A DNA stretch of 64,000 nucleotides from Bacteroidales bacterium (GCA_963675215.1 OY775914.1:3339181-3403180), one strand, 5' to 3'. Shown: positions 7,672-55,833, counted from the stretch's first letter. Numbers and translations are program-made. The notes: generated by a model not told the origin, from the sequence alone.

Positions 7672-7696
7672 TTTAAAGGTAGAATTTGCTCAAATG

Positions 7697-7842: not shown

Positions 7843-7855
7843 AGAAAAACGAAAT

Positions 7856-8779: not shown

Positions 8780-8807
8780 AACATAGAAATGGAATAAGCT
8801 CATAATT

Positions 8808-9341: not shown

Positions 9342-9367
9342 AAAAATATTAAAAATTTGTATTGAAA

Positions 9368-9424: not shown

Positions 9425-9436
9425 GAGGCGCGCTGA

Positions 9437-11421: not shown

Positions 11422-12063
11422 TTACTTACTCACCTGTCGCAATAATCCTTCCACTTGACTTTTTCCCCAATTTGGATGTATAGGAGATTTTGGTTTGTAA
11501 TTATCCCAGTCGGCTAGTAAACTTTCTAGGGCATCTCTGTAATCGGCAGGATCTTTCCCATAAAAGCTGGAACTGCCAATATCCTCTGCCAATTTCATAT
11601 ATCTGGCTCTTGGATTGTTAGGCTCCATCGCCAAAGCTTTACCAATGGTTTGGCCAAACAACATCCCATATTCCTGACCTCTGTTCATCGGATCGATAAC
11701 CAATTTTGCGGTATAATAAAATGCATTTAAGGCGATCACTTCCACCTCATTGGGGGCCAGTTCCAACATCCTGTTGATTGAGGTTTCGGCCTCAACCAAT
11801 AGGGCATCTTTATGTGAAGCATCATCTTGCGACATGAAACTCATAATGATATAAGCGTGGGCATGATAGTATAACGGCAACCATTCTTCTTTCTCAATGT
11901 TTGAGATCATTTTAAACTGATTGGCCATTTTTTGGAAATCCTCAACGGATTTGCATTTCCCATATTGGTCAATAGATTCACTCATTTTTTGTTGAAATTG
12001 TGCTTGTGAAAAACCTGTGAGGCTGATCAAAGTAATTGCTAATGTTAAAATTGTTGTTTTCAT
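11422..12063 (-). CDS. secreted helical protein of unknown function
   Basis: Signal peptide MKTTILTLAITLISLTGFSQA; 213 aa. Sits immediately downstream of the TonB-dependent receptor on the same strand. Confidence 0.7.
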   Translation of the reverse strand: MKTTILTLAITLISLTGFSQAQFQQKMSESIDQYGKCKSVEDFQKMANQFKMISNIEKEEWLPLYYHAHAYIIMSFMSQDDASHKDALLVEAETSINRMLELAPNEVEVIALNAFYYTAKLVIDPMNRGQEYGMLFGQTIGKALAMEPNNPRARYMKLAEDIGSSSFYGKDPADYRDALESLLADWDNYKPKSPIHPNWGKSQVEGLLRQVSK

Positions 12064-12092
12064 TTTATTTGGTTTTAGATTATTATTTATAG

Positions 12093-12134
12093 TTACTGGT
12101 TTCTTGATACTTGATACTTGTTTCTGGTTACTTG
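12093..12134. repeat. heptad-periodic tract
   Basis: ttactgg|tttcttg|atacttg|atacttg|tttctgg|ttacttg, between two minus-strand genes. Confidence 0.7.
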
Positions 12135-12175
12135 TTTAAAAATATTCTCATTCATAACTTATAATTCATTACTTA

Positions 12176-14450: not shown

Positions 14451-14618
14451 TGAATCTTGTATCTATTTTCTAGTTACTGGTTCCTAGTTACTGGTTCCTA
14501 GTTACTGGTTTCTGGTTCCAATTTTCTGGATTCTAAATTCTGTCTTCTGGTTTCTCTATTCTATTTTTCTGTCTTGTATCTAGTATCTATTATCTTGTAT
14601 CTTAAATCTGTTTTCTTT
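14451..14618. repeat. long heptad-periodic tract (about 24 heptads, including 14-nt units TAGTTACTGGTTCC)
   Basis: tgaatct|tgtatct|attttct|agttact|ggttcct|agttact|ggttcct|agttact|ggtttct|ggttcca|attttct|ggattct|aaattct|gtcttct|ggtttct|ctattct..., then tatctag|tatctat|tatcttg|tatctta. Confidence 0.85.
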
Positions 14619-40767: not shown

Positions 40768-41501
40768 GCATCGTTATTATTCTTGTTTTAGCGCTTATAA
40801 TTTCCATCATTATTTTCACCAAAGGATACATTAAGCGAATTAAGCAAGAGCAAACTAAATTGAGTGAAACAAAAATTAAGTATCAAAAAGACCTACTTAA
40901 GGATAGTGTTTTAGTTCAGGAGCGTGAACGAAACCGTATTGCAGCCGACTTGCATGATAATTTAATTTCTAAACTACATATTTTAAAGCTAAGTCATCAT
41001 GCAAAAAAGCCGGCATCTCAAATTGACGAAATGCTGACAAATTCAATTGACATTGCCAGAAGAATATCGCATGATTTAAGTCCTCCCCTGATTGAAGAAA
41101 CTAGTTTAATTGAATTAATTGGCGAAATTACAAGTTCAATTCAGGGGAGCATTAATGTGGTCTTTTCTAAAACCAATATCACTGACCTTGAGATTCCCGT
41201 TGAATACAAACTGCAGATATTGCGAATCATACAAGAAGTAATTCAGAATATTTTAAAACATGCAGCAGCTAAAAGGATTGACATAAACTTACGAATCACA
41301 AAAAACAGCTTTGCCATCACCGTAAAGGATGATGGCATTGGTTTTGACCCTACCAGAAAAGCAAAGGGATTGGGAACAAAAAACATTGAACTAAGAACAC
41401 AATTACTTAAAGGACGTTATCGCTTTAAGTCAAAGATAAATGAAGGGACCTTTTTCCTTTTATTTATAAATGAATTTCATAAAAAAATAACAAATGACTA
41501 A
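40725..41501 (+). CDS. NarL/LuxR-type (HisKA_3) histidine kinase
   Basis: One TM (FAIGLSIVIILVLALIISIIIF), H-box 'ERNRIAADLHDNLISKL', and HATPase 'KDDGIGFD..KGLGTKNIE'. Confidence 0.8.
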   Translation: MAEWQDPQTFAIGLSIVIILVLALIISIIIFTKGYIKRIKQEQTKLSETKIKYQKDLLKDSVLVQERERNRIAADLHDNLISKLHILKLSHHAKKPASQIDEMLTNSIDIARRISHDLSPPLIEETSLIELIGEITSSIQGSINVVFSKTNITDLEIPVEYKLQILRIIQEVIQNILKHAAAKRIDINLRITKNSFAITVKDDGIGFDPTRKAKGLGTKNIELRTQLLKGRYRFKSKINEGTFFLLFINEFHKKITND

Positions 41502-42165
41502 AATTAACATAGCAATTGTTGATGATGAAGGATTGATCGTAGAATTACTAGATAATTTCTTTTCAAAAACAGATGAAATAATGGTTACGCTTACCGCTGG
41601 TGATGGTGAAGAATTTCTGCAAAAGTTACATGAAATGAATCAACTTCCCGACATTGTGTTGTTAGATCTTAGGATGAAGCAAATGAATGGGATCGAAACT
41701 CTCACCATACTAAAGCAGGATTTTCCGTTGATAAAGACAATAATTATGTCCTCGTACTACAAAAAGAATTTAATGGGATATATGCTAAAACTGGGAGTTA
41801 ATGCATTCATTCCCAAAGGTGTTTCACCTGAGCAATTGGTCGAAATTATTAAGGATGTAGCCGAAAAAGATTATTTTTTCATGAATGATCAGATTGATGA
41901 ATTACGAAAACAATTATCGTCAAAAATACCTAAGCCCAAACTGATTGAAGAAGAACAATTATCAGATAGAGAAAAAGAAGTGCTCTCCCTCATCTGTCAA
42001 CAAAAAACAGCCCAGGAAATTTCAGAGATATTATTTCTATCCAAACGAACTATTGAAGGTCACAGAACTAATTTATTATTAAAAACCGGGGCAAAAAACA
42101 CAGCAGGCCTGGTAATTTTTGCGATTCAGAACAAAATAGTAGATCCAACCGAACAGATAATGTAA
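41494..42165 (+). CDS. NarL/LuxR-family response regulator
   Basis: REC 'IAIVDDEGLIV..DIVLLDLRM'. C-terminal LuxR HTH 'LSDREKEVLSLICQQKTAQEISEILFLSKRTIEGHRTNLLLKTG'. Confidence 0.9.
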   Translation: MTKINIAIVDDEGLIVELLDNFFSKTDEIMVTLTAGDGEEFLQKLHEMNQLPDIVLLDLRMKQMNGIETLTILKQDFPLIKTIIMSSYYKKNLMGYMLKLGVNAFIPKGVSPEQLVEIIKDVAEKDYFFMNDQIDELRKQLSSKIPKPKLIEEEQLSDREKEVLSLICQQKTAQEISEILFLSKRTIEGHRTNLLLKTGAKNTAGLVIFAIQNKIVDPTEQIM

Positions 42166-42485: not shown

Positions 42486-43097
42486 ATGCAAAATTTAAAA
42501 ACAGTTTTTCAAAAGGCACCTGCTAATTCAGGGTCATCAGCAGATGGTATTAGCGTAACATCATTCGGACAGGGACAATGTTCTGGTGTAACATATACAG
42601 TATCTCCACATTCTGTAATTGATGTTGATTTTACCATTAACATGCTTTGTGTAACACCTGAGAATGTTGACACATTGGACAAATTAATCAGGAGTATGCT
42701 AAGTGCTTCAAAGCAGCATGAATATGATCAGTTAACCAAGAAAAGTTCAAGTGGCGGAAGAGGTTTCTTCTTGTTTTTCTCAGGTGGTGGAAGTCGTTCA
42801 TCTGTGAGCCAAACTACTCATACCATGGATTCGTTTGGACTTACCAGAGAGCAACAATCAAAAATTATTGATTCAATGCTGGCATTGGTTGCAAAAACAA
42901 ACAAATTTAGTTTTAAGGGCAAAATTTCAAATCAACAATACGATTATGCCGTTTCAGGAAATCTGTTTGCGATTGTGATGGATGCAACAATTCAAAAAGG
43001 TGAAACCCATACACAAGTCAGATTTTTAGCACCTAATGTACACATGAACAGTACAGATGGCGCTGCTAGTTTGCCAGTTGAAGGCAAGCTTTATTAA
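42486..43097 (+). CDS. orphan protein with a central Gly/Ser/Phe-rich segment
   Basis: 203-aa ORF with no signal peptide; 'KKSSSGGRGFFLFFSGGGSRSSVSQTT' lies mid-protein. Flanked by the conserved box upstream and a strong terminator downstream. Confidence 0.65.
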   Translation: MQNLKTVFQKAPANSGSSADGISVTSFGQGQCSGVTYTVSPHSVIDVDFTINMLCVTPENVDTLDKLIRSMLSASKQHEYDQLTKKSSSGGRGFFLFFSGGGSRSSVSQTTHTMDSFGLTREQQSKIIDSMLALVAKTNKFSFKGKISNQQYDYAVSGNLFAIVMDATIQKGETHTQVRFLAPNVHMNSTDGAASLPVEGKLY

Positions 43098-43121
43098 TCC
43101 TATATTTTAGTCTAGTGTATT

Positions 43122-43170
43122 AAAATAATACCTCCGGGTTATGATTAACCAGGAGGTATTATTTTAAAAC
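43122..43170 (+). terminator. rho-independent terminator
   Basis: aaaataatacctcc / ggaggtattatttt 14-bp perfect stem, with an inner ggtt/aacc extension, ending in a T-run. Confidence 0.8.
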
Positions 43171-43248: not shown

Positions 43249-44256
43249 ATGAGATATGATAAAATCTTAAAAATGTATACAATAGGTACAAACGAAAGCC
43301 GCAATTACTCAGTGAAAAAGCTACAGAATCTAAAACAAAAACACAATTCCGGCATAGGATATATTTGTGCGCTTTTGTTATTCACTTTTGTATTTCATTT
43401 AAACACGAATGGACAATGCATTAGAACAAGAAACACTCGCAACTGGGATTCAAAATTCACGATTGGTATAGAACGCGGTATTGCATCACAAATAATAAGA
43501 GGCAACTCAAGTCTGAATTTCACAAGTATCCCGACTAACTCAGAAGCCGCTATAAATTTAAGTGAAACAAGATTATTTGACCAGCATCTTAGCTCATCTG
43601 CACTCATTGGAATTGAGGCTTTGTATAAAATTACGCCTGCAATTTCAATAGGCTTAGCCTATCAATTCCGAAACCAGAATACCTATAATTCAAAGATGAT
43701 TTTTAATCAGGATAAGTTAATCCTATCAAATGATTTAGCGGTGTCTTCATTCGGAGAATTTAAACTTAATTCGGATATCAGAAATACATCCATTTCTGTG
43801 GTTACCCATTTAAATATCTTCAATTTCAGCCTTACAAACGAACATGCCGGTTCATTCGAGATTGGCCTTGGAGGCGGAATATCTTTCTTTAAAATAAAAT
43901 CCTTTGTATCACAAGCTTTCTTAAGAATGGACATTCAAAATGATTATGTTGAGGGCAGATACATATTAGGTCCCGGAAATATTTCACCTGAAACCAAAAG
44001 ATCAGCATCCTGCACTTGGCAATTGATCACCGCTTTAAATTTAAAGTCGACTTATTCGCCTGATATTAAGATAGGATTCAGAATAAGCAGTTTAGGACAT
44101 TTTATTATTTTGAAAAGAAATAAAGAAATGCATCAATTGTTCAAACTCACCAGTGCGAATACAGGCTCACAAGATCAGGAATTATCTCTATTATCAACAA
44201 ATAGCAGCAGAGAAATTATCCTCAATGAGATTTTTATTAGAATTTATTTATGGTAG
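43249..44256 (+). CDS. putative outer-membrane beta-barrel protein
   Basis: Hydrophobic signal-like segment 'IGYICALLLFTFVFHLNTNGQ', alternating-residue strands, and a C-terminal aromatic end 'IFIRIYLW'. The start (43249 or 43273) is uncertain. Confidence 0.55.
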   Translation: MRYDKILKMYTIGTNESRNYSVKKLQNLKQKHNSGIGYICALLLFTFVFHLNTNGQCIRTRNTRNWDSKFTIGIERGIASQIIRGNSSLNFTSIPTNSEAAINLSETRLFDQHLSSSALIGIEALYKITPAISIGLAYQFRNQNTYNSKMIFNQDKLILSNDLAVSSFGEFKLNSDIRNTSISVVTHLNIFNFSLTNEHAGSFEIGLGGGISFFKIKSFVSQAFLRMDIQNDYVEGRYILGPGNISPETKRSASCTWQLITALNLKSTYSPDIKIGFRISSLGHFIILKRNKEMHQLFKLTSANTGSQDQELSLLSTNSSREIILNEIFIRIYLW

Positions 44257-44341
44257 CATTTAAATAAAAACGTTGGCGGTGAATGCAGCATCAGAGCCTG
44301 TCGCTAAAATATTATGCAATCTGTAAGGCATAAATAGTAAT

Positions 44342-44402
44342 TATACTTGATTTTACAAAACAGGTATTTCCTACCTAAATATTTACATAGGCTGCTTATA
44401 AC
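44342..44402 (+). promoter_or_regulatory. conserved upstream box, copy 2
   Basis: See copy 1. Located about 40-100 nt upstream of the 44440 ORF. Confidence 0.6.
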
Positions 44403-44439
44403 TTAGCCATAACTTGTTAGATTATATGGTTAAAAAGTT

Positions 44440-45102
44440 ATGATTATGAACAAGATTAAAAATATCATCAATGTTCCTTTAGCTAACACTCACGCTTATT
44501 TTAATATGAATCATACTTCTGCAATAGAAAAAGGATTCATTTCAAATGGTTATGCAGAAATAAAGACGAAACTTCAACATACCAAAAACAAGATTGAATA
44601 TTTTATTGAAATAAACTCAATTGATGTAGCAGTTTTTACAGAATGGAGATTACAACTCATTAAAATATTAGGCAATAGGCTTATTAATAACATTGAATCG
44701 ATAATGGTTTTAGACTCCCCATTAAAAAAGAATCATGTCCTCATCGAACACATGCCAACCTATGTGCTTTACATCATCGAATATGCTTTAAAAACAAATA
44801 TTAATATTGAAAAGTTCCCAAACTATACACAAATTCATTTTAACACTACAAGTTCTTCAAACTGTCAATGCAATCAAATATTTGAAAGTATTTACAATTT
44901 GGAATCGAATATAATTCAACATTCAGGAAAACTGCTTGCTACTAAAAACCGTCAATTATCAAAAGCATATATTCCAGTTACTATTCTTGAATTTTCTGAT
45001 GGTAAAATTGTTCCTTTCACAGGATACAATGGGCCATTCACCATAACATCCAGCTTTCATAATTCATTGCGATTACAATATGAATGCAATAATATGAATT
45101 AA
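44440..45102 (+). CDS. orphan Asn/Ile/Lys-rich protein
   Basis: 220-aa ORF with very AT-rich codon usage, no recognisable motif and no signal peptide. Confidence 0.55.
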   Translation: MIMNKIKNIINVPLANTHAYFNMNHTSAIEKGFISNGYAEIKTKLQHTKNKIEYFIEINSIDVAVFTEWRLQLIKILGNRLINNIESIMVLDSPLKKNHVLIEHMPTYVLYIIEYALKTNINIEKFPNYTQIHFNTTSSSNCQCNQIFESIYNLESNIIQHSGKLLATKNRQLSKAYIPVTILEFSDGKIVPFTGYNGPFTITSSFHNSLRLQYECNNMN

Positions 45103-45166
45103 CATAAAAAATCCTTGCCCATGTTAATATTGAAAGTCAGATAAGAAGTGGAGTTCAGAAACCACT

Positions 45167-45240
45167 ATAACAAACGAAACCTTCCCGAATTGGTTAAAAC
45201 TTGGGGGCGAAAACCGAAAAGCCTTATGAGTAGGAATAAC
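45167..45240 (+). repeat. possible divergent copy I of the structured element
   Basis: 'ATAACAAACGAAACC....GGTTAAAACTTGGGGGCGAAAACC....TATGAGTAGGAATAAC' shares the TAACAAA start and the GAGTAGG block with copies A and C. Confidence 0.3.
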
Positions 45241-45255
45241 TAAATATTATTAATT

Positions 45256-45711
45256 ATGGCTATTTTAAATTTTGTTGGACGCGTTAACATTGCAGTCCGT
45301 ATCGTAACAGAGAAGTACCCTAACGCAAAATTGTATGAAGCAGAAGGCGTATCTTCAACAGGATTGACTACTGATCCTCTAAAAATTGATAAACTAAAGG
45401 TCGTTTTTCAAAACAGTAATAACACAACTGTTATTATTAAATCAACTGGTTGGGGAGAATTTGGAGAACCAGAATTAATTCCTTACCCATGGTGTGAAGA
45501 TGTTGTTATTCAATGGCCTGTAAAAATGGATTTGGCAGAAGCCAATCAACTAAAAGAGGCTGCTGGTTACAAAGCCTCCTATGGTGCAGTAACTCTTCGT
45601 AATCCTTTAGGACCAAAAATTGGCAATCCTTATTACATTTTTGGCAGCAATCCAAGAGAACCGTATATTTTTGTGGACACGATAACCAAAGATGTACATG
45701 CTGGAAGTTAA
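45256..45711 (+). CDS. orphan small soluble protein
   Basis: 151-aa ORF with no signal peptide and no motif I can name. Confidence 0.6.
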   Translation: MAILNFVGRVNIAVRIVTEKYPNAKLYEAEGVSSTGLTTDPLKIDKLKVVFQNSNNTTVIIKSTGWGEFGEPELIPYPWCEDVVIQWPVKMDLAEANQLKEAAGYKASYGAVTLRNPLGPKIGNPYYIFGSNPREPYIFVDTITKDVHAGS

Positions 45712-46184
45712 TCTGAGTATGGTAAAACGGGCAGTAATTCTACAATTAAAGAATTACTATCCGTTACTTATCTTAATCAAGTACTTGAGGTATATCAACT
45801 TTTATATTGTGCCATCCAAACAGGTGTTTTTTTCTCAAAAACAAATTAAAATCAGATCAGACTTGTATGATGCAGATTAACATCCGATTGCGCTATAAAT
45901 TTATAAACAATCGCTATGACATTTAAATTCCACAATTTCAATCTAGTCAGAGGAAAGCAAATCCTGAACTGAATCAAAAAAATCAATTTTTAACCTGAAA
46001 ACTAAAAAAATACAACAGGCCATTTAAAGCCAGGAATTTAAACTCCATTTCGGGAATTAACAAAAAAAGACAAAATACTTTTTTAAAACCGCAATGAAGA
46101 CACGTTAGTGAAATAAAGAAAATTTATTTTTAATCTAATCTCTCCTGTTCACGCGAGTTATTGCTGATCAATAGCTCACATCAT

Positions 46185-46226
46185 ACTGCTCATTCAGTTC
46201 TCAATACTTGTATGAGCAGTTTTTAT
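46185..46226 (+). terminator. orphan rho-independent terminator in a 730-bp ORF-free region
   Basis: actgctcat / atgagcagt 9-bp perfect stem followed by TTTTT. No credible upstream ORF. Confidence 0.55.
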
Positions 46227-46438
46227 AACTTAAAAACTAGAATTAATAAACACCCTTCAAAAAATCAGAATCCAGCAAACCTGAATTTAAAGAAACAATA
46301 TTTTTACATATTTAAATCATCTCTTATTTTTTTATACTTTTATCTATCTATTTGGATATATTAAATCTATCTACTAACCAAACTATTACAACACTTATTA
46401 TTCATTTTGTTATTTAATTTAACCAATCTATATCAATT

Positions 46439-49400
46439 ATGAAAAAAATAGCCCTTTACCTAAGTTTATTTTTCATACTTCTGTCTTCGACAGGATTTTC
46501 ACAAAGCAATGAGAAAGATGAACTTCTATCTGAAAAAACTTTTAAAGATTTAAAATTTCGAAATATCGGACCGGCTTTCATGTCGGGAAGAATTGCCGAT
46601 ATAGCTATTCATCCTAATGACGACAACACCTGGTACGTTGCCGTTGGATCAGGTGGTGTTTGGAAAACCGTAAATGCAGGAATCACCTGGGAACCCATTT
46701 TCGATAATGAAACTTCATACTCAATCGGCTGTGTAAGTATTGATTCAAAAAATCCAAACAACATTTGGGTTGGAACCGGCGAAAATGTGGGTGGTCGTCA
46801 TGTTGGCTTTGGCGATGGCATTTACAAAAGTGTAGATGCCGGAAAGACATGGAAAAACATGGGTTTAAAACTCTCTGAGCATATCTCAAAAATCATTGTT
46901 CATCCTACGAATTCCGATATTGTATGGGTTGCAGCCCAAGGTCCTTTGTGGAGTAAAGGAGGAGAACGGGGTTTATATAAAACTGTTGATGGTGGAAAAA
47001 CATGGAAAAAGACTTTAGGTGATGATACCTGGACAGGTGTAACTGATCTGGTTATTGATCCCCGAAATCCGGATGTACTTTTTGCTGCAACATGGCAACG
47101 ACATCGATCCGTCGCTTCTTATGTCGGTGGTGGACCCGGATCTGGAATTCATAAAAGTACTGATGGAGGCGACACTTGGCTAAAACTTAGCAGTGGATTA
47201 CCAGAAGAAAACATGGCTAAAATAGGGCTTGCGATCTCACCACAACAACCCGATATTGTTTATGCCGCAATTGAATTAATTCGTGTCAAAGGTGGAATTT
47301 ATCGCAGCAGCAACTCAGGAATGACTTGGGAAAAGCGTTCAAATGTTGTCTCTGGTGCCACGGGACCACATTATTACCAAGAACTTTATGCATCACCTCA
47401 TCAATTCGAACGATTATATTTGGTTGACAACACCATGTTGATTTCGGAAGATGGAGGAAAAAATTTCTCTCGCATGAACAACACCCATAAACATGGTGAT
47501 GAACATGCAGTGGCATTTAAAAAAAACGACCCGGATTATGTGATGGTTGGTTCTGATGGTGGTTTATACGAAAGCTTTGATCATACTAAGAATTGGCGAT
47601 TTATGGAAAATCTTCCGATCACTCAATTTTATAAAGTCGCGCTGGATGATGCGGAACCATTTTATAATATTTATGGAGGAACTCAGGATAATAGCACTCA
47701 AGGCGGACCATCGCGAACAGATAATTTTCAAGGCATTCAAAACTCCGACTGGAGCGTGGTATTAAACTGGGATGGACATCAACCTGCAACAGAGCCCGGC
47801 AATCCAAATATCATGTACGCTGAACGTCAGGAAGGGGCGCTATCACGAATTGACCTAAGCACTGGTGAAGTAATCGATATTCAACCAGCACCAAATGCCG
47901 ATGAAGATTTTGAGCGATTTAATTGGGATGCACCGATTTTGGTGAGCCCGCACTCCCCTACCCGAATTTATTTCGCATCTCAAAGGGTTTGGAAATCCGA
48001 AAACCGTGGTGACGAATGGAAAGCCATTTCTGGTGATTTAACTAAAAATGAATTGCGAATTGCTACACCGCTAATGGATGGAACCCAAAGCTGGGATGCG
48101 GCCTGGGATTTCAATGCCATGTCAAATTATAATACCATTACTTCTTTGGCCGAATCACCAAAACAAGAAGGTTTAATTTATGCCGGAACCGACGATGGAA
48201 CCATTCAAGTGACTGAAGATGGAGGAAACAATTGGCGAAAAGTTGATTTCGGAAAAATTCCGGGACTTCCTAAAACAGCATTTGTAAATGACATTAAAGC
48301 TGATTTATTTGATGCCGGAACCGTTTATGTTTCATTTGATAATCATAAATATGGCGACTTCTCACCCTACTTATACAAAAGTACTGATAAAGGTAAAAGC
48401 TGGAAATCCATCAGTTCAAATATCCCAGATAGAACTTTAATCTGGCGATTGGTTCAGGATCATGTAAAACCTGAATTGATGTTTTGTGCCACTGAGTTCG
48501 GTGTTTATTTTACCATCAATGCAGGCGAAAAATGGATTAAATTAAGTGGAGGGATTCCTACCATTTCCTTCAGAGATATAGCCATTCAAAAACGAGAAAA
48601 TGATTTAGTTGCGGCTTCCTTTGGGCGTGGATTTTTTGTTTTAGACGACTACAGTGTACTTCGTGAAATTACAGAGGAAAAACTTGAAGCAGAAGCCAGT
48701 TTATTCTCAACTCGAAAAGCATGGTGGTATGTTCCCCGTTCTCACCTGAGTTTTGATGAAGAGAAAGGCAGCCAGGGCGCTGATCATTATGTAGCACCTA
48801 ACCCCGATTTTGGCGCCATTTTCACTTACTTCTTAAAAGATGATTTGAAAACCAAAGAAAAGATCAGACAGGAAAAAGAAAAAAACTTGAGCAAACAATC
48901 CAAAGCAATTTCCTTTCCCGGATGGGATGAGCTGCTTGATGAAGTAAGGGAAGAAATGCCCGGCATTTATATTGTTGTCAGCGATGCAACTGGCAAAGTA
49001 ATTAGAAGGGTAAAAGGACCTTCAACAAAAGGATTTCACCGTGTGAGTTGGGATTTACGTTACCCGGCTACCAGTGCAATTCGTTTGGACGAAACTAGTT
49101 CAAATCAAACATCAGGTCTTTTGGCTGCCCCCGGAACCTATACTGCCGAAATGGTAAAATACGCAAACGGAAAAATCAGCAAGCTCTCCGAAGCCATTTC
49201 TTTTGAGGTGGTGCCTTTAAAGTCGGGTGCATTGAAGGGTGCTTCGATGGAGGAAGTTGATGCTTTCTGGCGTGCATACGAAAAAGTATCTCGCGAAGTT
49301 TCTGGAATGGAAATAGAACTGGCAAATGCTTTAAATAAAATTAAAGCAATGCAAAAAGCTCTATTGAGCTCATCTTCAAAACCAGGAACTTTGGAAACAC

Positions 49401-49696
49401 AATTATTTGAAGTTCATCAAACACTGCTAAATTTGGATATGGAACTATACGGCCATCAGGCTAAACGACAGGTTGGCGAAAAAACCAAACCCAATATTGG
49501 TCAGCGCATGTTCAGACTTGAGTTGGGAATTAGTCGTTCAACCTACGGCCCCACTCCTACCCACAGAAAACAATTAAAAATTGTAAACGATCAGTTGTCT
49601 GCAATCATCACTAAATTGGAAAAAGCAATGCAGGAAATGGATGTTTTGGGTAAAACCCTGAAAGATCATGGTGCTCCCTTGGTTGAAGGAAGATAA
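46439..49696 (+). CDS. secreted BNR/Asp-box (sortilin/VPS10-like) repeat protein
   Basis: Signal peptide; repeated Asp-boxes 'SVDAGKTW', 'TVDGGKTW', 'STDGGDTW', 'SSNSGMTW', 'TEDGGNNW', 'STDKGKSW'. Confidence 0.85.
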   Translation: MKKIALYLSLFFILLSSTGFSQSNEKDELLSEKTFKDLKFRNIGPAFMSGRIADIAIHPNDDNTWYVAVGSGGVWKTVNAGITWEPIFDNETSYSIGCVSIDSKNPNNIWVGTGENVGGRHVGFGDGIYKSVDAGKTWKNMGLKLSEHISKIIVHPTNSDIVWVAAQGPLWSKGGERGLYKTVDGGKTWKKTLGDDTWTGVTDLVIDPRNPDVLFAATWQRHRSVASYVGGGPGSGIHKSTDGGDTWLKLSSGLPEENMAKIGLAISPQQPDIVYAAIELIRVKGGIYRSSNSGMTWEKRSNVVSGATGPHYYQELYASPHQFERLYLVDNTMLISEDGGKNFSRMNNTHKHGDEHAVAFKKNDPDYVMVGSDGGLYESFDHTKNWRFMENLPITQFYKVALDDAEPFYNIYGGTQDNSTQGGPSRTDNFQGIQNSDWSVVLNWDGHQPATEPGNPNIMYAERQEGALSRIDLSTGEVIDIQPAPNADEDFERFNWDAPILVSPHSPTRIYFASQRVWKSENRGDEWKAISGDLTKNELRIATPLMDGTQSWDAAWDFNAMSNYNTITSLAESPKQEGLIYAGTDDGTIQVTEDGGNNWRKVDFGKIPGLPKTAFVNDIKADLFDAGTVYVSFDNHKYGDFSPYLYKSTDKGKSWKSISSNIPDRTLIWRLVQDHVKPELMFCATEFGVYFTINAGEKWIKLSGGIPTISFRDIAIQKRENDLVAASFGRGFFVLDDYSVLREITEEKLEAEASLFSTRKAWWYVPRSHLSFDEEKGSQGADHYVAPNPDFGAIFTYFLKDDLKTKEKIRQEKEKNLSKQSKAISFPGWDELLDEVREEMPGIYIVVSDATGKVIRRVKGPSTKGFHRVSWDLRYPATSAIRLDETSSNQTSGLLAAPGTYTAEMVKYANGKISKLSEAISFEVVPLKSGALKGASMEEVDAFWRAYEKVSREVSGMEIELANALNKIKAMQKALLSSSSKPGTLETQLFEVHQTLLNLDMELYGHQAKRQVGEKTKPNIGQRMFRLELGISRSTYGPTPTHRKQLKIVNDQLSAIITKLEKAMQEMDVLGKTLKDHGAPLVEGR

Positions 49697-49816: not shown

Positions 49817-50539
49817 ATGCCTAAAAAAATCAAAACATTCTTAAACTGGAGTTCGGGTAAGGATGCCGCCATGGCTCTTTATTATATGCAACAAAGCCCG
49901 GATTTTCAAGTCGATCATTTGCTTATTTCCGTCAATGGACATTTAGATCGGGTGTCAATGCATGGCGTTCGCACTTCGCTCTTAAAAATGCAGGTTGAGG
50001 CCATTGGCCTGCCTTATTCTATAATTAAATTACCGGAAGAACCCAGCATGGATACCTATGAAGCTATCATGTCGGTGCAAGTAAAAAAGCTACAAAGTGA
50101 AGGATTCACCTGTGCTGCTTTTGGAGATATTTTTCTGGAAGATCTTCGTGAATATCGAGAAAAAAAACTGAAAGAAATTAATATGCAAGCGGCTTTCCCT
50201 TTATGGAACAAGAACACCAAAACACTTTTAAACGAGTTTTTAGATCATGGTTTTAAAGCCATTGTGGTTTGCATTAATTCCAATTTATTGGATGCTTCTT
50301 TTGCCGGTCGGGTCATCGATAAAGATTTTATAAAAGATTTGCCTGGCAACGTTGACCCTTGCGGAGAAAATGGTGAATTTCACACCTTTTGTTTTGATGG
50401 CCCTATTTTTAAACAGCCCATTGATTTTACAATTGGCGAAAAAATATTTAAAGAATACAAAACACCTAAAGGAGACAATAAAGAAAATGACAGCAACATG
50501 GGATTTTGTTTTTGCGACCTGATTCCGAAAATCAGTTGA
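49817..50539 (+). CDS. Dph6-related / MJ0570-type ATP pyrophosphatase (PP-loop) domain protein
   Basis: 'WSSGKDAAMAL' PP-loop variant and 'GENGEFHTF' motif. Confidence 0.75.
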   Translation: MPKKIKTFLNWSSGKDAAMALYYMQQSPDFQVDHLLISVNGHLDRVSMHGVRTSLLKMQVEAIGLPYSIIKLPEEPSMDTYEAIMSVQVKKLQSEGFTCAAFGDIFLEDLREYREKKLKEINMQAAFPLWNKNTKTLLNEFLDHGFKAIVVCINSNLLDASFAGRVIDKDFIKDLPGNVDPCGENGEFHTFCFDGPIFKQPIDFTIGEKIFKEYKTPKGDNKENDSNMGFCFCDLIPKIS

Positions 50540-50665
50540 CTGGTTGTTGGTTGTTGGTGATTAGTGACTGGTTCTGAATTTAGTAATCAGATTCTAACAA
50601 TCTATTTTTCTTTTTTCTTTTTTCTTTTTTCTACATTCTGCATTCTAACTTCTCATTTTCAAATT
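50540..50665. repeat. heptad-periodic tract (about 18 heptads) starting at the base after the stop codon
   Basis: ctggttg|ttggttg|ttggtga|ttagtga|ctggttc|tgaattt|agtaatc|agattct|aacaatc|tattttt|ctttttt|ctttttt|ctttttt|ctacatt|ctgcatt|ctaactt|ctcattt|tcaaatt. Confidence 0.85.
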
Positions 50666-50677
50666 AGCACATCATCA

Positions 50678-50705
50678 AACTTGCCTGTTGCAAGCAGGTT
50701 TTCAA
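50678..50705 (+). terminator. terminator-like hairpin
   Basis: aaacttgcctg-ttg-caagcaggttt imperfect stem followed by TTC. Confidence 0.45.
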
Positions 50706-50710
50706 ATTTA

Positions 50711-50875
50711 TTCCTTATCTTTATTCCTGAAATTCTTCCTGCCCTTGGGAAGTAATTGTTGATTAGAATTTCAAACTCCCCATTTATTGAATTTTTAGCT
50801 CGGTTTTAATTAATCGAAAAAATATATAATTGCACAAAAGCTAGCTAATACATGTCTATATAGGTGAATATAGTT
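50711..50875 (+). repeat. conserved intergenic core, copy Y (paralogous to 6201..6395)
   Basis: See copy X. Confidence 0.7.
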
Positions 50876-50953
50876 ACTAAAGATGCCCATATATAGTCGT
50901 TAGGTTTAATGCAAAAAAAGGGAACAAAAATTGACTACGTGTACTAATTTTTA

Positions 50954-50961
50954 TATTTTTG
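50954..50961 (+). promoter_or_regulatory. Bacteroidota-type -7 box candidate (TATTTTTG = TAnnTTTG) in front of the Fic gene
   Basis: Matches the TAnnTTTG consensus, 18 nt before the ATG at 50979. Confidence 0.35.
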
Positions 50962-50978
50962 GTACAAATATTGAAAAC

Positions 50979-52061
50979 ATGGGACAAAATGCACCATATC
51001 GGATTCTAGAAAAACTACCTCCCCCAAGAGAAAAAGTAGAAACAATCAAGATATTAAGAAATGTGAGCAAGGCAACTGCTGCATTGGCCGAATTAAAAGG
51101 TATTGCCAAAACAATCCCTAATCAGGCAATGTTGATTAATGCGATTGTTCTTCAAGAAGCAAAAGGCAGTTCAGAAATAGAGAACATCATCACGACACAA
51201 GATGAGCTATACAAAGCTTTGACTGTAAACAGATCAATCATTTCAGCAGGAACAAAAGAAGTAGTAAACTATAGAAAATCAATTTTTCAGGGGTTTGACT
51301 TGATTAAGAAACAAGGACTTTTAAAAGTAAACGATATTGTAAACATCCAACAAGAGTTAGTTGGAAACAATTCTGGTATAAGAAGTATGCCTGGAACCGT
51401 ACTTAAAAATGACACAACAGGAGAGATTGTTTACACTCCTCCTCAGGACAAACAAGAAATATTAGATTTACTTTCAAATTTCATTGATTACTACAACCAA
51501 AACAATCAGGAGTTATCACCTTTGATAAATCTTGCAATTTTGCACCATCAATTTGAGAGCATTCACCCATTTTATGACGGGAATGGAAGAACTGGTAGAA
51601 TATTGAACATTTTATACCTGATATTAAATGACTTGATAGATATACCAATATTATATCTCAGTTCGTATATCATAGAAAACAAGGCAGGTTATTACCGTTT
51701 ATTAAACCAAACAAATCGTCTGAATGAATGGGAAGAATGGATTTTATTCATGCTCAAGGCTGTTGAAGTCACATCCTTACAAACAATCGAAAAGATAAAT
51801 ACCATTAGACAATTATTAAATCAAACTATAGAAAAAGCACAGATTGATGCTCCTAAAATATATAAGAAAGAGTTGGTTGAATTGCTATTTGAACAACCTT
51901 ATTCAAAAATAGAATTCGTAGTAAACCTCTTAAGGGTCGAAAGAAAAGCAGCATCAAGATACCTAAAGGAGTTAGAGAGAATTGGAATCTTGGAATCTCA
52001 AATAGTTGGTCGAGAAACATTATACATTAATAAAGAACTGATTGAAATATTAAAAAAATAA
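50979..52061 (+). CDS. Fic-family protein (AMPylase-type) with an N-terminal inhibitory helix motif
   Basis: Fic motif 'HPFYDGNGRTGR'; upstream 'GSSEIEN' fits the (S/T)xxxE(G/N) auto-inhibition motif; C-terminal winged-helix-like tail. The ATG at 50979 is preferred to the TTG at 50931. Confidence 0.85.
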   Translation: MGQNAPYRILEKLPPPREKVETIKILRNVSKATAALAELKGIAKTIPNQAMLINAIVLQEAKGSSEIENIITTQDELYKALTVNRSIISAGTKEVVNYRKSIFQGFDLIKKQGLLKVNDIVNIQQELVGNNSGIRSMPGTVLKNDTTGEIVYTPPQDKQEILDLLSNFIDYYNQNNQELSPLINLAILHHQFESIHPFYDGNGRTGRILNILYLILNDLIDIPILYLSSYIIENKAGYYRLLNQTNRLNEWEEWILFMLKAVEVTSLQTIEKINTIRQLLNQTIEKAQIDAPKIYKKELVELLFEQPYSKIEFVVNLLRVERKAASRYLKELERIGILESQIVGRETLYINKELIEILKK

Positions 52062-52068
52062 TGCACTA

Positions 52069-52175
52069 AGCCCAACAAAAGCTATGGTTCATGGCGCTCA
52101 GACAGGTTACGAAATCTTAGGGTTTTCCTGCCTACGGCAGGCAGGTGCCACGTAACCATCGCAATACAGTTAGCG
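52069..52175 (+). repeat. full-length structured intergenic element D (attC-like imperfect dyad)
   Basis: GCCCAACAAAAGCTATGGTTCATGGCG....CCATCGCAATACAGTTAGCG. Nested pairings: aac/gtt, atggtt/aaccat, tggc/gcca, and a central cctgcc-tac-ggcagg hairpin. Starts 8 nt after the Fic stop. Confidence 0.6.
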
Positions 52176-52238
52176 GCAATGTAAAATTTAAACTCCTAGA
52201 AAAAGGAATATTTGTATTAAAAACCTAAACTCAAGATC

Positions 52239-52661
52239 ATGAAAACTTTAACCAAATTATTTTTGTCAGTTTTTATAATTAGTCTTACTTCTTGTAACCA
52301 TTTTAAAGATAAACCTGAATGTATTAACAAAGATAGCTTCTTTGACAATAATGATCCAATGACAGAAACATATCAGGAAAAAGTTAAAGAAGTTTTAAAA
52401 ATTACAACCCCTAATGATTTTAGATATTTTTTCGTAACATTTACTGGCGACAATAATGAATATCTAATGGTGAACATGAGAAACAATGAATATTGTTTTG
52501 ACGCAAAAATATTGGTAGAAAATTGGGATAAATTAGCAGGCATGAGAGAGAAAAAGGGGAGATCGTATCCCGAAGAATTACATAATTTAAAATGGAAATT
52601 AGAAAAATCTGGAGGAAGCGAAAATATAGTCTATCTAGACATGAACAAAATTATTGATTAA
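52239..52661 (+). CDS. small lipoprotein, unknown function
   Basis: Signal peptide plus lipobox 'ISLTSCNH'; 140 aa. Confidence 0.65.
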   Translation: MKTLTKLFLSVFIISLTSCNHFKDKPECINKDSFFDNNDPMTETYQEKVKEVLKITTPNDFRYFFVTFTGDNNEYLMVNMRNNEYCFDAKILVENWDKLAGMREKKGRSYPEELHNLKWKLEKSGGSENIVYLDMNKIID

Positions 52662-52663
52662 CA

Positions 52664-52720
52664 CTGCTGCTAACAAAGGCTCATAAAACATGGCTAATTC
52701 TTACTCAGCAGAAACGCATT
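52664..52720 (+). repeat. left-half copy B of the structured element
   Basis: 'ctgctgCTAACAAAGGCTCATAAAACATGGCTAATTCTTACTcagcagAAACGCAT'. ctgctg/cagcag can close a stem. Starts 3 nt after the stop codon. Confidence 0.55.
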
Positions 52721-52747
52721 AATTATAAATATATAAAAACGAAAATC

Positions 52748-53323
52748 ATGAATAGAATTATTATTTTACTCATCTTTTCTCACTTTTTTTCAAATGGCAT
52801 ATCTGCGCAAGACATTCTTGATAAATACACTTCAACCAAATGGGGGTTTACCATTTCTTTTCCTTTCGAGAAAACAAAGAAGGGTAGCCGTTTCGAGGAT
52901 GATAAAACTTTTCAGTTTCACATCAGTCAGTATTACAGAGGGCAATATGATGTAGTCGATATTTCAGTGATAAAATATTCCGATACGCTTGAACTGGTAA
53001 ACAATTACAATTCAATGATTACAGCACTTGAAACATCAAAACTAAGCGATGGATACACGCTGATCGACAGTCTTTGTTCAGAAGTTAAAAGTGCTCATTA
53101 TAACGGGGTTCAAAAAGCTTTTTATAATGAATTCGCTGGTCTGAACAAAGATTATATCATCGTTCGCTTCTTCAAAACAGACCGCTATTTATATAGTCTT
53201 ACGCTTACAGTTCCAAACCTGAAAAGATATAATGAAAATTTGAAAATATTAGCGTCGTTTACCATTCTTACCCAGGATAATCAAACTGGCGCTCCAAAAA
53301 AAGAAAGAAAACGACCCAAATAG
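52748..53323 (+). CDS. secreted protein, unknown function
   Basis: Signal peptide MNRIIILLIFSHFFSNGISAQ; 191 aa; basic tail KKERKRPK. Confidence 0.65.
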   Translation: MNRIIILLIFSHFFSNGISAQDILDKYTSTKWGFTISFPFEKTKKGSRFEDDKTFQFHISQYYRGQYDVVDISVIKYSDTLELVNNYNSMITALETSKLSDGYTLIDSLCSEVKSAHYNGVQKAFYNEFAGLNKDYIIVRFFKTDRYLYSLTLTVPNLKRYNENLKILASFTILTQDNQTGAPKKERKRPK

Positions 53324-53327
53324 TAAG

Positions 53328-53831
53328 ATGATGAAAAACATAGGTTATTACTTCTTTATATCTGCAATTACAATTTTGTTATTATCAAGTTGTAACAAAG
53401 AATCCAAAATAATTATTGATAAAAAAAGTGAAATAGAGGGAATTTGGTACACTGAGGGTTATTTGGAAGAATTTAATGAAATTTCCAGATTAGAATATAA
53501 TTTCAAGAAACAAGGAGGACTTGATATTCTAAGAGTCGAGCTTGATTTTAATTCAAGAGAAATATTAGGTTACAGATATCGGACGCTAGGGAAATATAGA
53601 TTAGAAGAAAATCATTTAATATTATACAGTTTGAGAAGCTTCGGGAATGATGATACCATAGCACATTATACGAATCTTCACAATTTGCAATTTGTCCCCA
53701 ACAGTGATATGCATACATATAATTACAGGTATGAGATAATTGATGGGGAAAATAAATTAATTATATACTTTACGAGTGGAAGAACAAGTAAAAGTAGTCT
53801 GGGTAAAATTATCTTAACAAAGCAGCAATAG
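53328..53831 (+). CDS. small lipoprotein, unknown function
   Basis: Signal peptide plus lipobox 'LLLSSCNK'; 167 aa. Confidence 0.65.
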   Translation: MMKNIGYYFFISAITILLLSSCNKESKIIIDKKSEIEGIWYTEGYLEEFNEISRLEYNFKKQGGLDILRVELDFNSREILGYRYRTLGKYRLEENHLILYSLRSFGNDDTIAHYTNLHNLQFVPNSDMHTYNYRYEIIDGENKLIIYFTSGRTSKSSLGKIILTKQQ

Positions 53832-53860
53832 AATTGTTTGTGCCAAAGTTGACTAATCTT

Positions 53861-53922
53861 AATAAGGGCTTTAAACAATGGCGCCTGCATGCAGTGCAGC
53901 TAAACCATCACTACCAACTGAA
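53861..53922 (+). repeat. short degenerate copy F of the structured element
   Basis: 'AATAAGGGCTTTAAACAATGGCGC-CTGCATGCAG-TGCAGCTAAACCATCACTACCAACTG'. The ATGGC..CCAT frame surrounds a perfect 10-bp palindrome; both ends are mutated relative to D. Confidence 0.45.
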
Positions 53923-53952
53923 ATTAAATGGTGCAATAAAAATTTGAATAAC

Positions 53953-54126
53953 ATGAAAAAACAATCTTATTTAGCATTAATCCTTTTAATATTGGGACTC
54001 ATATTTTCATCAAGTTTTGGATTTAAATTTAATTTAAGTGATGGATTTACCATGCTTGTTACTGGATTCACCAGCCTTTTCAATTTCTTGATTTTGCAGT
54101 TATCGGCTCAAATGAAGTTCATTTGA
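53953..54126 (+). CDS. tiny membrane protein (57 aa), or the 5' part of a frameshifted membrane-protein gene
   Basis: MKKQSYLALILLILGLIFSS... The ORF-track start at 53878 lies inside repeat F, so the internal ATG is preferred. Confidence 0.4.
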   Translation: MKKQSYLALILLILGLIFSSSFGFKFNLSDGFTMLVTGFTSLFNFLILQLSAQMKFI

Positions 54127-54401
54127 CATCACATCTTATTGGTTACATTTTTTATTTTTTTGCAGGAATAGTAGCACTTAAAAATGTAAAAACTGGTGAC
54201 AAAAAAACCAAAACTGCGACAAGTATCTTTTTCTTATTAATTGCAATTGTTTTTATAAGTGAACTTTACTCATACCATCAAGACTTTAATAACATATTTA
54301 TTGGCCGGCACTTCAGAGTTGGGTTTACTGTTTTTCTTATTGGAGTTTTCATCTTAAAACAATTAAAAAATAAATCCGATCAAGCAATCACAAAACATTA
54401 A
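54123..54401 (+). CDS. small membrane protein (TTG start), or the 3' part of the same frameshifted gene
   Basis: 92 aa, 3 TM; overlaps the preceding stop in TTGA. Confidence 0.4.
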   Translation: MTSHLIGYIFYFFAGIVALKNVKTGDKKTKTATSIFFLLIAIVFISELYSYHQDFNNIFIGRHFRVGFTVFLIGVFILKQLKNKSDQAITKH

Positions 54402-54438
54402 ACTTTCAAAACTTAGTCGCTAACAAAAACCTAATGAA

Positions 54439-54897
54439 ATGAAAAATCAAAAATATAGCCTTTTCATAGTGTTCTTCATAGTTTTTCCTTTTCTTTCTCT
54501 TTCAGCTCAAGACACTTTTAAAAAAGTTACGGAAAGGATGATTGATAAATCTAAAATTGAACTCGCTACAAAAATTGCAAGTTCGTTTTTTGAAAACTTA
54601 AAACAAGGTAAATTTTACGACTTTAGCGAAGTTGCTATAAAAACTTTTAGTGATGGAATGGGTGCTGAGGTTCAAAAACAAACCTATGAGCAATTAAAAA
54701 TTCAATTTGGCGAATTCAAAAAACTTGACTATGCGGAAACATGGGCAGCAAATGAAGATGATGGTTTACAAGTTATTCGCTTTAAAGGTACTTTTGAAAA
54801 TTATACAGCGCCTTTAGAAATAAGAGTCGTGATAAACGATTCAAATAAATTAACAGGATTGTGGTTTAAACTTTGGAAGGACAACTTAAACAACTAG
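54439..54897 (+). CDS. secreted DUF3887-like protein
   Basis: Signal peptide; 'QTYEQLKIQFGEFKKL..' and 'PLEIRVVINDSNKLTGLWF' resemble DUF3887. Confidence 0.55.
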   Translation: MKNQKYSLFIVFFIVFPFLSLSAQDTFKKVTERMIDKSKIELATKIASSFFENLKQGKFYDFSEVAIKTFSDGMGAEVQKQTYEQLKIQFGEFKKLDYAETWAANEDDGLQVIRFKGTFENYTAPLEIRVVINDSNKLTGLWFKLWKDNLNN

Positions 54898-54901
54898 TAA
54901 A

Positions 54902-55294
54902 ATGACAAAATCAAGCATTTCAAATTATTTAAACAAGTTTGACTATAAATTTATTGAGCACGAAAAATCATTTATTGTTGACCTTGATTTTTCATTGCAA
55001 ATTATCATCGAACTGATGGATAATGGAAAAATAAAAATAACCGACCAATTAAAAGGTTTAAATTTCCTAACATGGCCTTTTCCAATGAGTATTAAGTCAT
55101 CAATGATCTACAATACAATTGGTTTAATCGTATTTACACTACTTATTCTTGTAATAGAAAAATCATACAGTCAATTTTTTCTCACTATAATTTATATGTG
55201 TGCTATCTTTGCGATTTTATTTTGGATGATTTACTATTTTGTTAAAGCTGAGAATTTTAAAAAACAAATTATTGATCTGATTACTCATCAATAA
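54902..55294 (+). CDS. small membrane protein, unknown function
   Basis: 130 aa with a soluble N-half and 2 C-terminal TM helices. Confidence 0.55.
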   Translation: MTKSSISNYLNKFDYKFIEHEKSFIVDLDFSLQIIIELMDNGKIKITDQLKGLNFLTWPFPMSIKSSMIYNTIGLIVFTLLILVIEKSYSQFFLTIIYMCAIFAILFWMIYYFVKAENFKKQIIDLITHQ

Positions 55295-55306
55295 AAATTA
55301 AACTAA

Positions 55307-55747
55307 ATGAAAACTTCCGAAAACACTGTTGTTGTTGAACAAACTTTTAAAACATCACCTGCGAAGGTGTGGAGTGCCATTACCAATGTGAAAGAAATGA
55401 CACTTTGGTTTTTCGATAATATTCCTTCCTTCAAAGCTGAGGTTGGATTTAAAACACAATTTTTGATTCAGGTAAGAAAAAGAAAATTTACCCACCTTTG
55501 GGAAATAACTGAGGTAATTCCCAATCAAAAAATAACTTATAACTGGAAGTATAAAGAATACCCTGGAGATGCCTACGTGACTTTTGAACTATTTGAAGAA
55601 GAGAAGCAAGTCAGACTCAGAGTCACCATGCTCGTGACTGAAGATTTTCCGGACGATGTTCCTGAATTTACCTGGGATAGCTGCATTGAGGGCTGGAGGT
55701 ATTTTATAGTTGAGCGACTTAAAATTTATTTGCACCGAAGGCGGTAA
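55307..55747 (+). CDS. SRPBCC/AHSA1-like domain protein
   Basis: 'VVVEQTFKTSPAKVWSAITNVKEMTLWF' and the length (146 aa) fit the Aha1/START-like superfamily. Confidence 0.7.
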   Translation: MKTSENTVVVEQTFKTSPAKVWSAITNVKEMTLWFFDNIPSFKAEVGFKTQFLIQVRKRKFTHLWEITEVIPNQKITYNWKYKEYPGDAYVTFELFEEEKQVRLRVTMLVTEDFPDDVPEFTWDSCIEGWRYFIVERLKIYLHRRR

Positions 55748-55833
55748 ACCGAGGCTCATTCTTTTACTTCAAATTCGTTTGTTCGAGCAATCCATTTTCT
55801 TTATTTTTACATTTCACTTAAGTAATTCAATTT

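Follow-up and report, generated by a model that had tools for sequence, protein, structure and literature searches.

A 64,000-nt stretch of DNA from a Bacteroidales bacterium (GCA_963675215.1 OY775914.1:3339181-3403180; hereafter the window, with positions counted from its first letter) contains an island of short open reading frames (ORFs) headed by a Fic gene of the SoFic type. From profile searches, covariance models and comparison with other loci, we consider it likely that the segment 50540-55288 is a lineage-specific insertion and that its first 1.8 kb are what remains of an integron-type cassette array lacking a nearby integrase. Two sites in this segment, D and B, belong to a family of attC-like sites that is organized into arrays in other Bacteroidota. 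The inner stem of the family covaries, the junctions between successive units are complementary, and the island is absent from the corresponding locus of the closest relative (L001). Sequence comparison supports the view that the Fic unit is a widely travelling cassette and that the unit carrying the ORF o140 would be a second cassette of the same array. The cassette reading of these two units follows from the occurrence of the Fic unit in multi-cassette arrays elsewhere, from the covariation of the sites, and from the pairing of the 5' end of a unit with the box at its own 3' end.

Sites D and B

Site D, located 3' of the Fic gene (Table 1), has two outer boxes and two inner arms. Its left side consists of an R'' box (GCCCAAC, 52070-76), a 4-nt spacer (AAAA) and an L'' arm (GCTATGGTT, 52081-89), and its right side of an L' arm (AACCATCGC, 52154-62), a 6-nt spacer (AATACA) and an R' box (GTTAGCG, 52169-75). 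A variable region with an inner hairpin lies between L'' and L'. The L stem has eight of nine pairs formed, with one T.C mismatch, and the end boxes can be compared with the attC consensus RYYYAAC/GTTRRRY, to which R'' fits perfectly and R' in GTTAG only. The left end of D is almost identical to that of L075 (TAATGCACTAAGCCTAACA), a locus on the metagenomic contig Ga0209287_10000299.

Candidate sites were scored by a composite of left and right position weight matrices (PWMs, from 60 foreign sites) and L-arm pairing, with empirical controls. D reached 33.7 bits; the second-best position in the window had 10.5 bits, and the highest score among control loci totalling 1.66 Mb was 19.9 bits. With the left-end PWM, D (18.4 bits) and B (18.1 bits) were the two best positions in 128 kb (the window on both strands), followed by one at 11.5 bits, and only four positions in the 1.66 Mb of controls reached 18 bits or more. 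By sequence, D is unique in the window: neither a repeat search nor blastn found a copy elsewhere. Three matches to D (31493, 41930 and 62011) lie inside genes and were discarded as chance. The motif GCYMAACAAARGC was no more frequent in the window than expected by chance; a narrower motif, GCTAACAAARRC, was enriched, but solely through B and a 14-nt stretch further downstream. Rfam at gathering thresholds gave nothing on the window; when the island was searched in E-value mode, the sole match was a sub-threshold one to Lnt inside the AHSA1 gene.

Site B is a short member of the family and follows o140. It consists of an R'' box (TGCTAAC, 52668-74), a spacer (AAAG), GCTCATAAAAC..., CAGCAG, AAAC and the putative crossover G at 52716, after which the window reads CATTAA in place of TT.... 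A homologue of o140 with 78% identity was located in another locus (L154), where it is followed by the same short site, continuing there as G|TTATGG with an intact GTT. The identity between the window and L154 ends right after ...CAGCAGAAACG, at the predicted crossover G. Because the two are alike up to this point and then read TTATGG in one and CATTAA in the other, B runs to G52716 and lacks only the contribution of the next unit. Homologues of o140 were located in other contexts as well.

L154 itself carries, at 7880-9010, three short B-type sites in tandem, which follow a DUF5829 gene, the homologue of o140 and an ORF of 146 aa. The R'' box is missing from the third site, and the locus is a small decaying array in another genomic context.

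The site family in other Bacteroidota

We reconstructed the site family from 85 loci with Fic homologues (623 kb, both strands) and built a covariance model, R2, from 15 hand-delimited sites, leaving the window out. On the 85 loci, R2 found 72 sites at E < 1, all 72 of them on the strand of the Fic gene and clustered in arrays; on a further pair of loci, L159/L160, all 44 additional matches were on the + strand. Most of these 116 matches lie 3' of unrelated ORFs.

In an alignment of 62 sites, AAC and GTT were invariant (61/61). The inner (L) helix was 77.5% paired, with seven of its eight pairs changed on both sides, as is expected of the paired inner boxes of attC sites, and the covariation score of the whole structure was 0.40, compared with 0.14 in shuffles and at most 0.11 with slid partners. 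A conserved mismatch is present in most sites (column 17/281, unpaired in 42/61), a one-base bulge in the left arm occurs in some (L083, L085, L090_up), and pairing within a site is mostly lacking at the outermost three positions of R. The plan of the family is an outer pair NNNYAAC ... GTTRNNN around an inner covarying stem, with spacers of 4 nt on the left and 6-8 nt on the right and a middle of variable length, giving sites of 63 to about 135 nt.

The arrays in which these sites occur run head to tail, with one site per unit. In L075, 14 sites were found with one ORF between successive sites, each site starting 5-12 nt past a stop codon; the array adjoins a subtilase with a type IX secretion system (T9SS) sorting domain, and the host is therefore a member of Bacteroidota. 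Another contig, L159/L160 (ENA ERZ25074695 ctg337403_3x_l, 7064-38313), has about 33 distinct sites in 31 kb with ORFs on the + strand only. Its cargo includes AAA_15/OLD-TOPRIM, GmrSD, NACHT and helix-turn-helix (HTH) proteins, and one cassette gene is duplicated 10.6 kb apart. In L073 (ctg339955_13x_l), a SAVED effector and a DncV-like nucleotidyltransferase, which together resemble a cyclic-oligonucleotide-based anti-phage signalling system (CBASS), form one cassette between two sites at 7314-9901, directly 3' of a Fic cassette. A walk upstream from L073 led into another contig, which was array throughout. Further arrays are those of L090 (Ga0272443_10003152) and L102 (Ga0316205_10005582).

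Junctions between units

If the bases past G|TT belong to the next cassette, integron biology predicts that the outermost R positions are unpaired within a site, as they mostly are in the family. We compared, for consecutive sites, the 13 nt past the GTT of site n with the reverse complement of the 13 nt before the AAC of site n+1. The mean agreement was 8.6/13, with at least 10/13 in 16 of the 33 pairs, while random pairs gave 4.05/13 and the two ends of one and the same site 4.7/13. The 5' end of a unit thus reads as the reverse complement of the box at its 3' end, implying that crossover takes place at G|TT.

Both junctions of the window follow this rule. Relative to a background formed by every GTT...AAC pair in the window with a spacing of 300-2500 nt, the core at 50899 matches the left box of D in 9/13 positions (P 2e-3), and the right box of D matches the left box of B in 10/13 (14/17 when extended by eye; P 3e-4). 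This complementarity, together with the end of the window/L154 similarity at the G, would be the footprint of a crossover at G|TT.

We propose that a site of this family folds as a single strand and is cleaved between G and TT by a site-specific recombinase in the manner of an integron integrase. An excised unit would then carry the first bases past the upstream GTT, which would pair with its own 3' box, and the junction footprint that this scheme predicts is present in the foreign arrays and at both junctions of the window. The array in the window may now be immobile and eroding, with B lacking the TT of R' and the six downstream ORFs lacking sites.

The Fic unit

The Fic gene was assigned to SoFic on the basis of its domains, Fic_N, Fic and SoFic-like_C in Pfam, which cover its full length. 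Its ATG start (MGQ) is common to all homologues, and residues 11-360 match the PADLOC SoFic model at 5e-111. The NCBIfam model ProtAdlyltaseSoFic matched at 1.9e-123 with 412 bits, which is under its equivalog cut-off of 550 bits. In its full-length match and its domain architecture, the protein agrees with the SoFic single-gene defence family (PADLOC SoFic; Pfam SoFic-like_C), from which it differs in the sub-cut-off NCBIfam score and in being a predicted defence gene that apparently forms a mobile cassette together with a promoter of its own. There are more than 8000 homologues, of which the best 120 are 77-93% identical; those with names among the best 120 come from Bacteroidales, Cytophagales, Prolixibacteraceae and Marinilabiliaceae. 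Their neighbourhoods are unrelated, with the gene either solo or in arrays, and in complete genomes the neighbours include SusC/D, TrkH, CBASS and housekeeping genes.

The ends of the unit are shared between these loci. Alignments of the window to other Fic loci begin at 50895-50898, just before the GTTAGGT at 50899, and the motif CGTTAGGyTTmATGCAAAAAA is common to the 5' end in the window and in many Fic loci. In the window and the Fic loci alike, the 5' side carries CGTTAGGCTTCATGCAAAAAA (upstream form ...C|GTTAGGCTTCATGCAAAAAA) followed by a conserved palindromic promoter-like box, and past the stop codon come TAATGCACGAAAGCCTAAC and a spacer of 4 nt, then two complementary arms 40-110 nt apart, and lastly 6-8 nt and GTTAGGS. 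The upstream motif is the reverse complement of the downstream one. A right-end profile matched at 50896-50914 (E 2.7, the third best match in the window). The upstream junction is either a degenerate preceding site or the entry point, and the crossover there would lie between G50899 and T50900.

The promoter-like box at 50941-50965 is a palindrome, GTAC-N17-GGTAC, about 10 nt 5' of the Fic start, and was found in nearly all of about 50 Fic loci. It overlaps TAnnTTTG, which we take to be a Bacteroidota -7 box. The palindrome is a candidate autoregulatory operator for the winged helix-turn-helix C-terminal domain of SoFic.

Extent and remainder of the island

A scan of GTDB genomes with YaaA as the query assigned the window to Cytophagales-like Bacteroidota and gave L001, with a YaaA of 85% identity, as the closest relative locus. 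Its gene order is up240 (diphthamide-synthase-like), AHSA1 and yaaA, followed by the same downstream genes as in the window. The island, of about 4.7 kb, extends from the stop codon of up240 to the final codons of o130, and DNA homology between the window and L001 restarts in blastn at about 55289. From this gene order and the restart of homology, the AHSA1 gene belongs to the backbone and is no cassette. The island is not a clean insertion, since it takes the place of about 90 nt of sequence in L001. The neighbours upstream of the island are up240 and a BNR/sortilin protein.

Table 1. Features of the island and its flank in the window (all ORFs on the + strand; aa, amino acids; CDS, coding sequence)
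Feature	Position	Strand	Description
Lineage-specific island	50540..55288	+	Absent from L001 by tblastn synteny and blastn
Upstream junction	50856..50905	+	Imperfect dyad CTATATAGG (50856-64) / GCCCATATATAG (50885-96), then TC and R'-type core GTTAGGT (50899-50905)
Putative Fic (SoFic) cassette	50900..52169	+	1270 bp: 5' end, own promoter/operator, CDS, attC-like site to the predicted crossover G
Palindromic promoter/operator-like box	50941..50965	+	GTACTAATTTTTATATTTTTGGTAC; within the cassette; upstream of nearly every Fic homologue whatever the context
Fic CDS	50976..52061	+	361 aa; SoFic-type protein adenylyltransferase, single-gene anti-phage defence family
Site D	52070..52175	+	Complete attC-like site, 106 nt; composite score; R2 full-length alignment at exactly these coordinates
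Putative second cassette	52170..52716	+	547 bp: 5' end TTAGCGGCAATGT..., o140, site B
o140	52239-52661	+	140 aa, lipoprotein-like, no family
Site B	52668..52716	+	Short attC-like site; left-end PWM 18.1 bits; top nhmmer match
Remainder of the island	52717..55288	+	o191, o167, o57, o92, o152, o130; cassette status unproven
o191	52748-53323	+	No Pfam, NCBIfam or PADLOC assignment
o167	53328-53831	+	No Pfam, NCBIfam or PADLOC assignment
Repeat F	53861..53915	+	Not supported as a family member; left-end PWM -8.0 bits, background
o57	53953-54126	+	No Pfam, NCBIfam or PADLOC assignment
o92	54123-54401	+	No Pfam, NCBIfam or PADLOC assignment
14-nt 'remnant'	54418..54431	+	CGCTAACAAAAACC; R''-like heptamer and A-rich spacer only; left-end PWM 1.3 bits, background
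o152	54439-54897	+	DUF3887
o130	54902-55294	+	No Pfam, NCBIfam or PADLOC assignment
AHSA1/SRPBCC gene	55307..55747	+	Backbone; Pfam AHSA1; L001 orthologue 82% identical, between up240 and yaaA; yaaA is next in the window

An earlier note, made from the sequence of the window alone, had described an integrase-less array of attC-like cassettes reaching to yaaA and punctuated by four members of one repeat family: D, B (as a left half), F and a 14-nt remnant. The ORFs that it listed do exist, all on the + strand, and those besides Fic are small, with N-termini that by eye resemble signal peptides, lipoproteins or transmembrane segments. Its repeat family is reduced to D and B, whose membership is borne out by the PWM, the composite score and L154, and B is more than the half that was described there, only the TT... 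beyond its crossover G being absent. F and the remnant score as background, and the nhmmer scan of the window recovered neither. F has no GTT beyond the spacer-like TAAACC. The CGCTAAC of the remnant is the exact complement of the R' box of D (GTTAGCG), with an extended match of only 8/13 (background P about 1e-2). R2, nhmmer, the composite score and the left-end PWM all failed to find a family-type site 3' of B in the island, and homologues of o191 to o130 were found in none of the fetched loci. The six ORFs past B therefore cannot be called cassettes, and the array of the earlier note is retained for the Fic and o140 units only; at its far end, the AHSA1 gene before yaaA is already backbone by the gene order of L001.

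A rival reading is that only the first two units are cassette-derived. The ORFs o191 to o130 would be ordinary accessory genes that came in together, with or beside these units, through some other process (homologous recombination in the flanks or illegitimate insertion, for example), and there would be no array of eight or nine cassettes here. We regard this as a serious possibility, although we give it somewhat less than even weight. The lack of family-type sites past B and the CATTAA that replaces TT after its crossover G are both in line with it, as are the replacement of about 90 nt of L001 and, by eye, the lack of junction complementarity between the right side of B and F or between F and the remnant. 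However, the ORFs throughout the island share one orientation and resemble those of the foreign arrays in their shortness and tight packing. Multi-ORF cassettes also occur there, for example the SAVED and DncV-like pair of L073, and short sites can decay in place, as in L154.

Comparison with integrons and other systems

We compared the family with integron attC sites by means of R1, a covariance model from 18 class-1 attC sites cut from plasmid integrons, which served as a surrogate for the model of IntegronFinder. In control runs, the training sites scored 26-75 bits, and two untrained attC sites scored 43-45 bits on the correct strand only. In the opposite direction, R2 was run on class-1 loci, where four of its nine weak matches were true attC sites at the exact coordinates and on the exact strand, which suggests a shared architecture. 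Neither model detects the sites of the other at significant scores.

Several results weigh against an integron-type array in the window, in addition to those already given for the region past B. If the repeats were true attC sites, an attC model was expected in the earlier note to recognize them; the surrogate R1, run on the window with filters off, gave a best match of 13.4 bits, which is noise, and less than 4.6 bits for D, and it found no site in the Bacteroidota arrays either. R2 alone aligned with D over its full length on the + strand at a low score (13.8 bits, E 1.2). The predicted single-strand fold of D was not better than that of shuffled sequences (z about -1.3), and the one bulge in D falls in the right arm, away from the position of the canonical extrahelical bases. 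The composite score that singles out D is our own construction, and the sites of the family were gathered solely from the surroundings of Fic homologues. A tblastn search with IntI1 gave two weak matches overall, neither of them in the 64-kb window, and no tyrosine recombinase of the IntI type was found there or at the array loci. At L075, which has the only array start that is visible, the array adjoins a T9SS peptidase gene and has no integrase. Integrase genes were likewise absent from the 31-kb stretch of L159/L160, and the loci with Fic genes or arrays, about 730 kb in all, showed no IntI.

A complete integron has intI and attI beside the first cassette, and the window gave no IntI1-like match. 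A cluster of attC sites lacking an integrase (CALIN) is defined as two or more attC sites inside the clustering distance, with no integron integrase in the vicinity (IntegronFinder 2; PMC9024848). In the window, the complete site D and site B, without the TT of R', are about 490 nt apart, with no IntI by tblastn in the 64 kb. The family resembles attC sites and CALINs in many respects: the site lies a few nt past a stop codon and has an outer pair of the RYYYAAC/GTTRRRY type, a paired inner L box, unpaired spacers and a middle of variable length, and the units are co-oriented, have one ORF each and a 5' end complementary to their own 3' box, with no adjacent integrase. In contrast, the left spacer is 4 nt long in the family and 5 nt in the aligned class-1 attC sites, the right spacer measures 6-8 nt, the canonical extrahelical bases are replaced by a conserved mismatch or, occasionally, a bulge, and the junction complementarity extends to about 13 nt. 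The window also has one complete site where a CALIN needs at least two, and the class-1 model is blind to the sites. The family is distinct enough from canonical attC sites to rank as a variant of them and not as an ordinary member.

Among sedentary chromosomal integrons, the Vibrio superintegron, for example, has homogeneous attC sites of the Vibrio cholerae repeat (VCR) type. The arrays of L075, L073, L102, L090 and L159/L160 are similar in that they hold many cassettes, the sites of any one array being about 130 nt long and nearly identical, and in a cargo of mostly unknown small proteins and defence genes (SAVED with DncV-like, OLD/AAA_15, GmrSD, NACHT, SoFic). They differ in their Bacteroidota hosts and in that no intI or attI was seen, and the window holds only a two-unit remnant.

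Repetitive extragenic palindromes (REP), bacterial interspersed mosaic elements (BIME) and elements derived from IS200/IS605 are imperfect intergenic palindromes, presumably recognized as folded single strands. They do not bound single ORFs head to tail, and their 5' ends are not complementary to their own 3' boxes. A mobile system of this general kind, in which folded single-stranded DNA is processed by an HUH nuclease (IS200/IS605-like or like the REP-associated tyrosine transposase, RAYT) or by an unrelated recombinase acting in trans, could have produced the likeness to attC by convergence. The missing IntI would then be expected, solo Fic units do occur at many unrelated chromosomal positions, and the lack of significant cross-recognition between R1 and R2 and the spacer geometry unlike that of class-1 attC sites point in the same direction. 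Nevertheless, we consider such a system improbable, given the head-to-tail arrays with one site per unit, the invariant AAC...GTT and the G|TT-type junction footprint; TnpA, TnpB and RAYT genes are also absent from the gene tables of the array loci, and four of the top nine weak matches of R2 were true class-1 attC sites. It is far less probable still that the repeats are unrelated intergenic hairpins or terminators in an ordinary variable islet and resemble attC by chance, a view that agrees with the uniqueness of D by sequence, the chance-level count of the 13-nt motif, the unremarkable fold energy of D and the lack of Rfam matches, but not with the score of D relative to the control maximum, the two best left ends of 128 kb, junction complementarity at P about 1e-3 to 1e-4 at each junction or the conserved site past the o140 homologue in L154, nor can the family be an artefact of conservation in Fic 3' untranslated regions when most of its 116 matches follow unrelated ORFs.

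Significance

Integrons are considered rare in Bacteroidota. A survey of complete genomes listed a single complete integron in Bacteroidetes, that of Salinibacter ruber (PMC9024848), and a preprint of 2024 places Bacteroidota among the clades "previously found without any integrons" (10.1101/2024.07.02.601686), while reviews list Bacteroidota as a phylum in which integrons were detected (PMC8618304, PMC9668308). The locus described here led to evidence, at the level of sequence, that integron-type cassettes are widespread in Bacteroidota, that SoFic is one of them and that long arrays are present in metagenomic contigs. Chromosomal integrons store defence systems (10.1101/2024.07.02.601686), and both the putative SoFic cassette and the defence genes carried by the arrays are consistent with such a role. 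If the sites truly escape the standard attC models, cassette pools would be undercounted in a major environmental and gut phylum, and the missing integrase would become a concrete, searchable question. The implications for the window are more limited, the island being an eroded and probably immobile remnant.

On a more speculative note, Bacteroidia and Cytophagia may possess their own class of attC-type sites, marked by the 4-nt left spacer, the conserved mismatch and complementarity over about 13 nt, in large sedentary arrays loaded with defence genes (at least 33 units in 31 kb) that canonical models miss and whose recombinase is perhaps not a classical IntI. The island would be a footprint of this class, and SoFic would be among its widest-ranging cassettes. 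We put this forward tentatively, as an idea that is rather unlikely to hold in full.

Other observations in the window

The best match of R2 in the window was at 7702-7834 on the + strand (18.8 bits, E 0.12), 31 nt past the stop codon of an ORF for a PD40-repeat protein (6445-7671). Its left end is CACTAAC and its right end CCATAGCC-TAAAGC-cTTAGTG, and the two ends can pair with one another. This match may represent a degenerate site of the D/B family that stands alone. Two paralogous segments of about 200 nt, at 50648-50853 and 6145-6343 (about 74% identical, E 3e-13), are not present in the L001 locus. Each lies 3' of a run of 7-nt tandem repeats and 5' of a unit with a terminal attC-like site, namely the Fic gene with D and the ORF 6445-7671 with 7702-7834. 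These segments could be a shared platform or promoter region; an attI-like platform was considered and dropped, position being its sole support.

The 7-nt tandem repeats, of the TGGTTAC/TAGTTAT type in a 14-nt register, occur at 5910-5965, 12058-12150, 14453-14559 and 50537-50564. These runs (repeat-search families D1, D5 and D8) are directly 3' of the stop codons of unrelated genes. No tRNA gene was found in the window. L001 does not have the window genes at 43249-49696, indicating that the whole neighbourhood is rich in insertions and deletions. The orthologue of the window ORF 41494-42165 is broken across two frames in L001 (6530-7202), a metagenome-assembled genome, probably by an assembly frameshift, and a 25-nt inverted repeat (92%, 4-nt loop) at 43117-43170, just 3' of the ORF 42486-43097, is probably a terminator.

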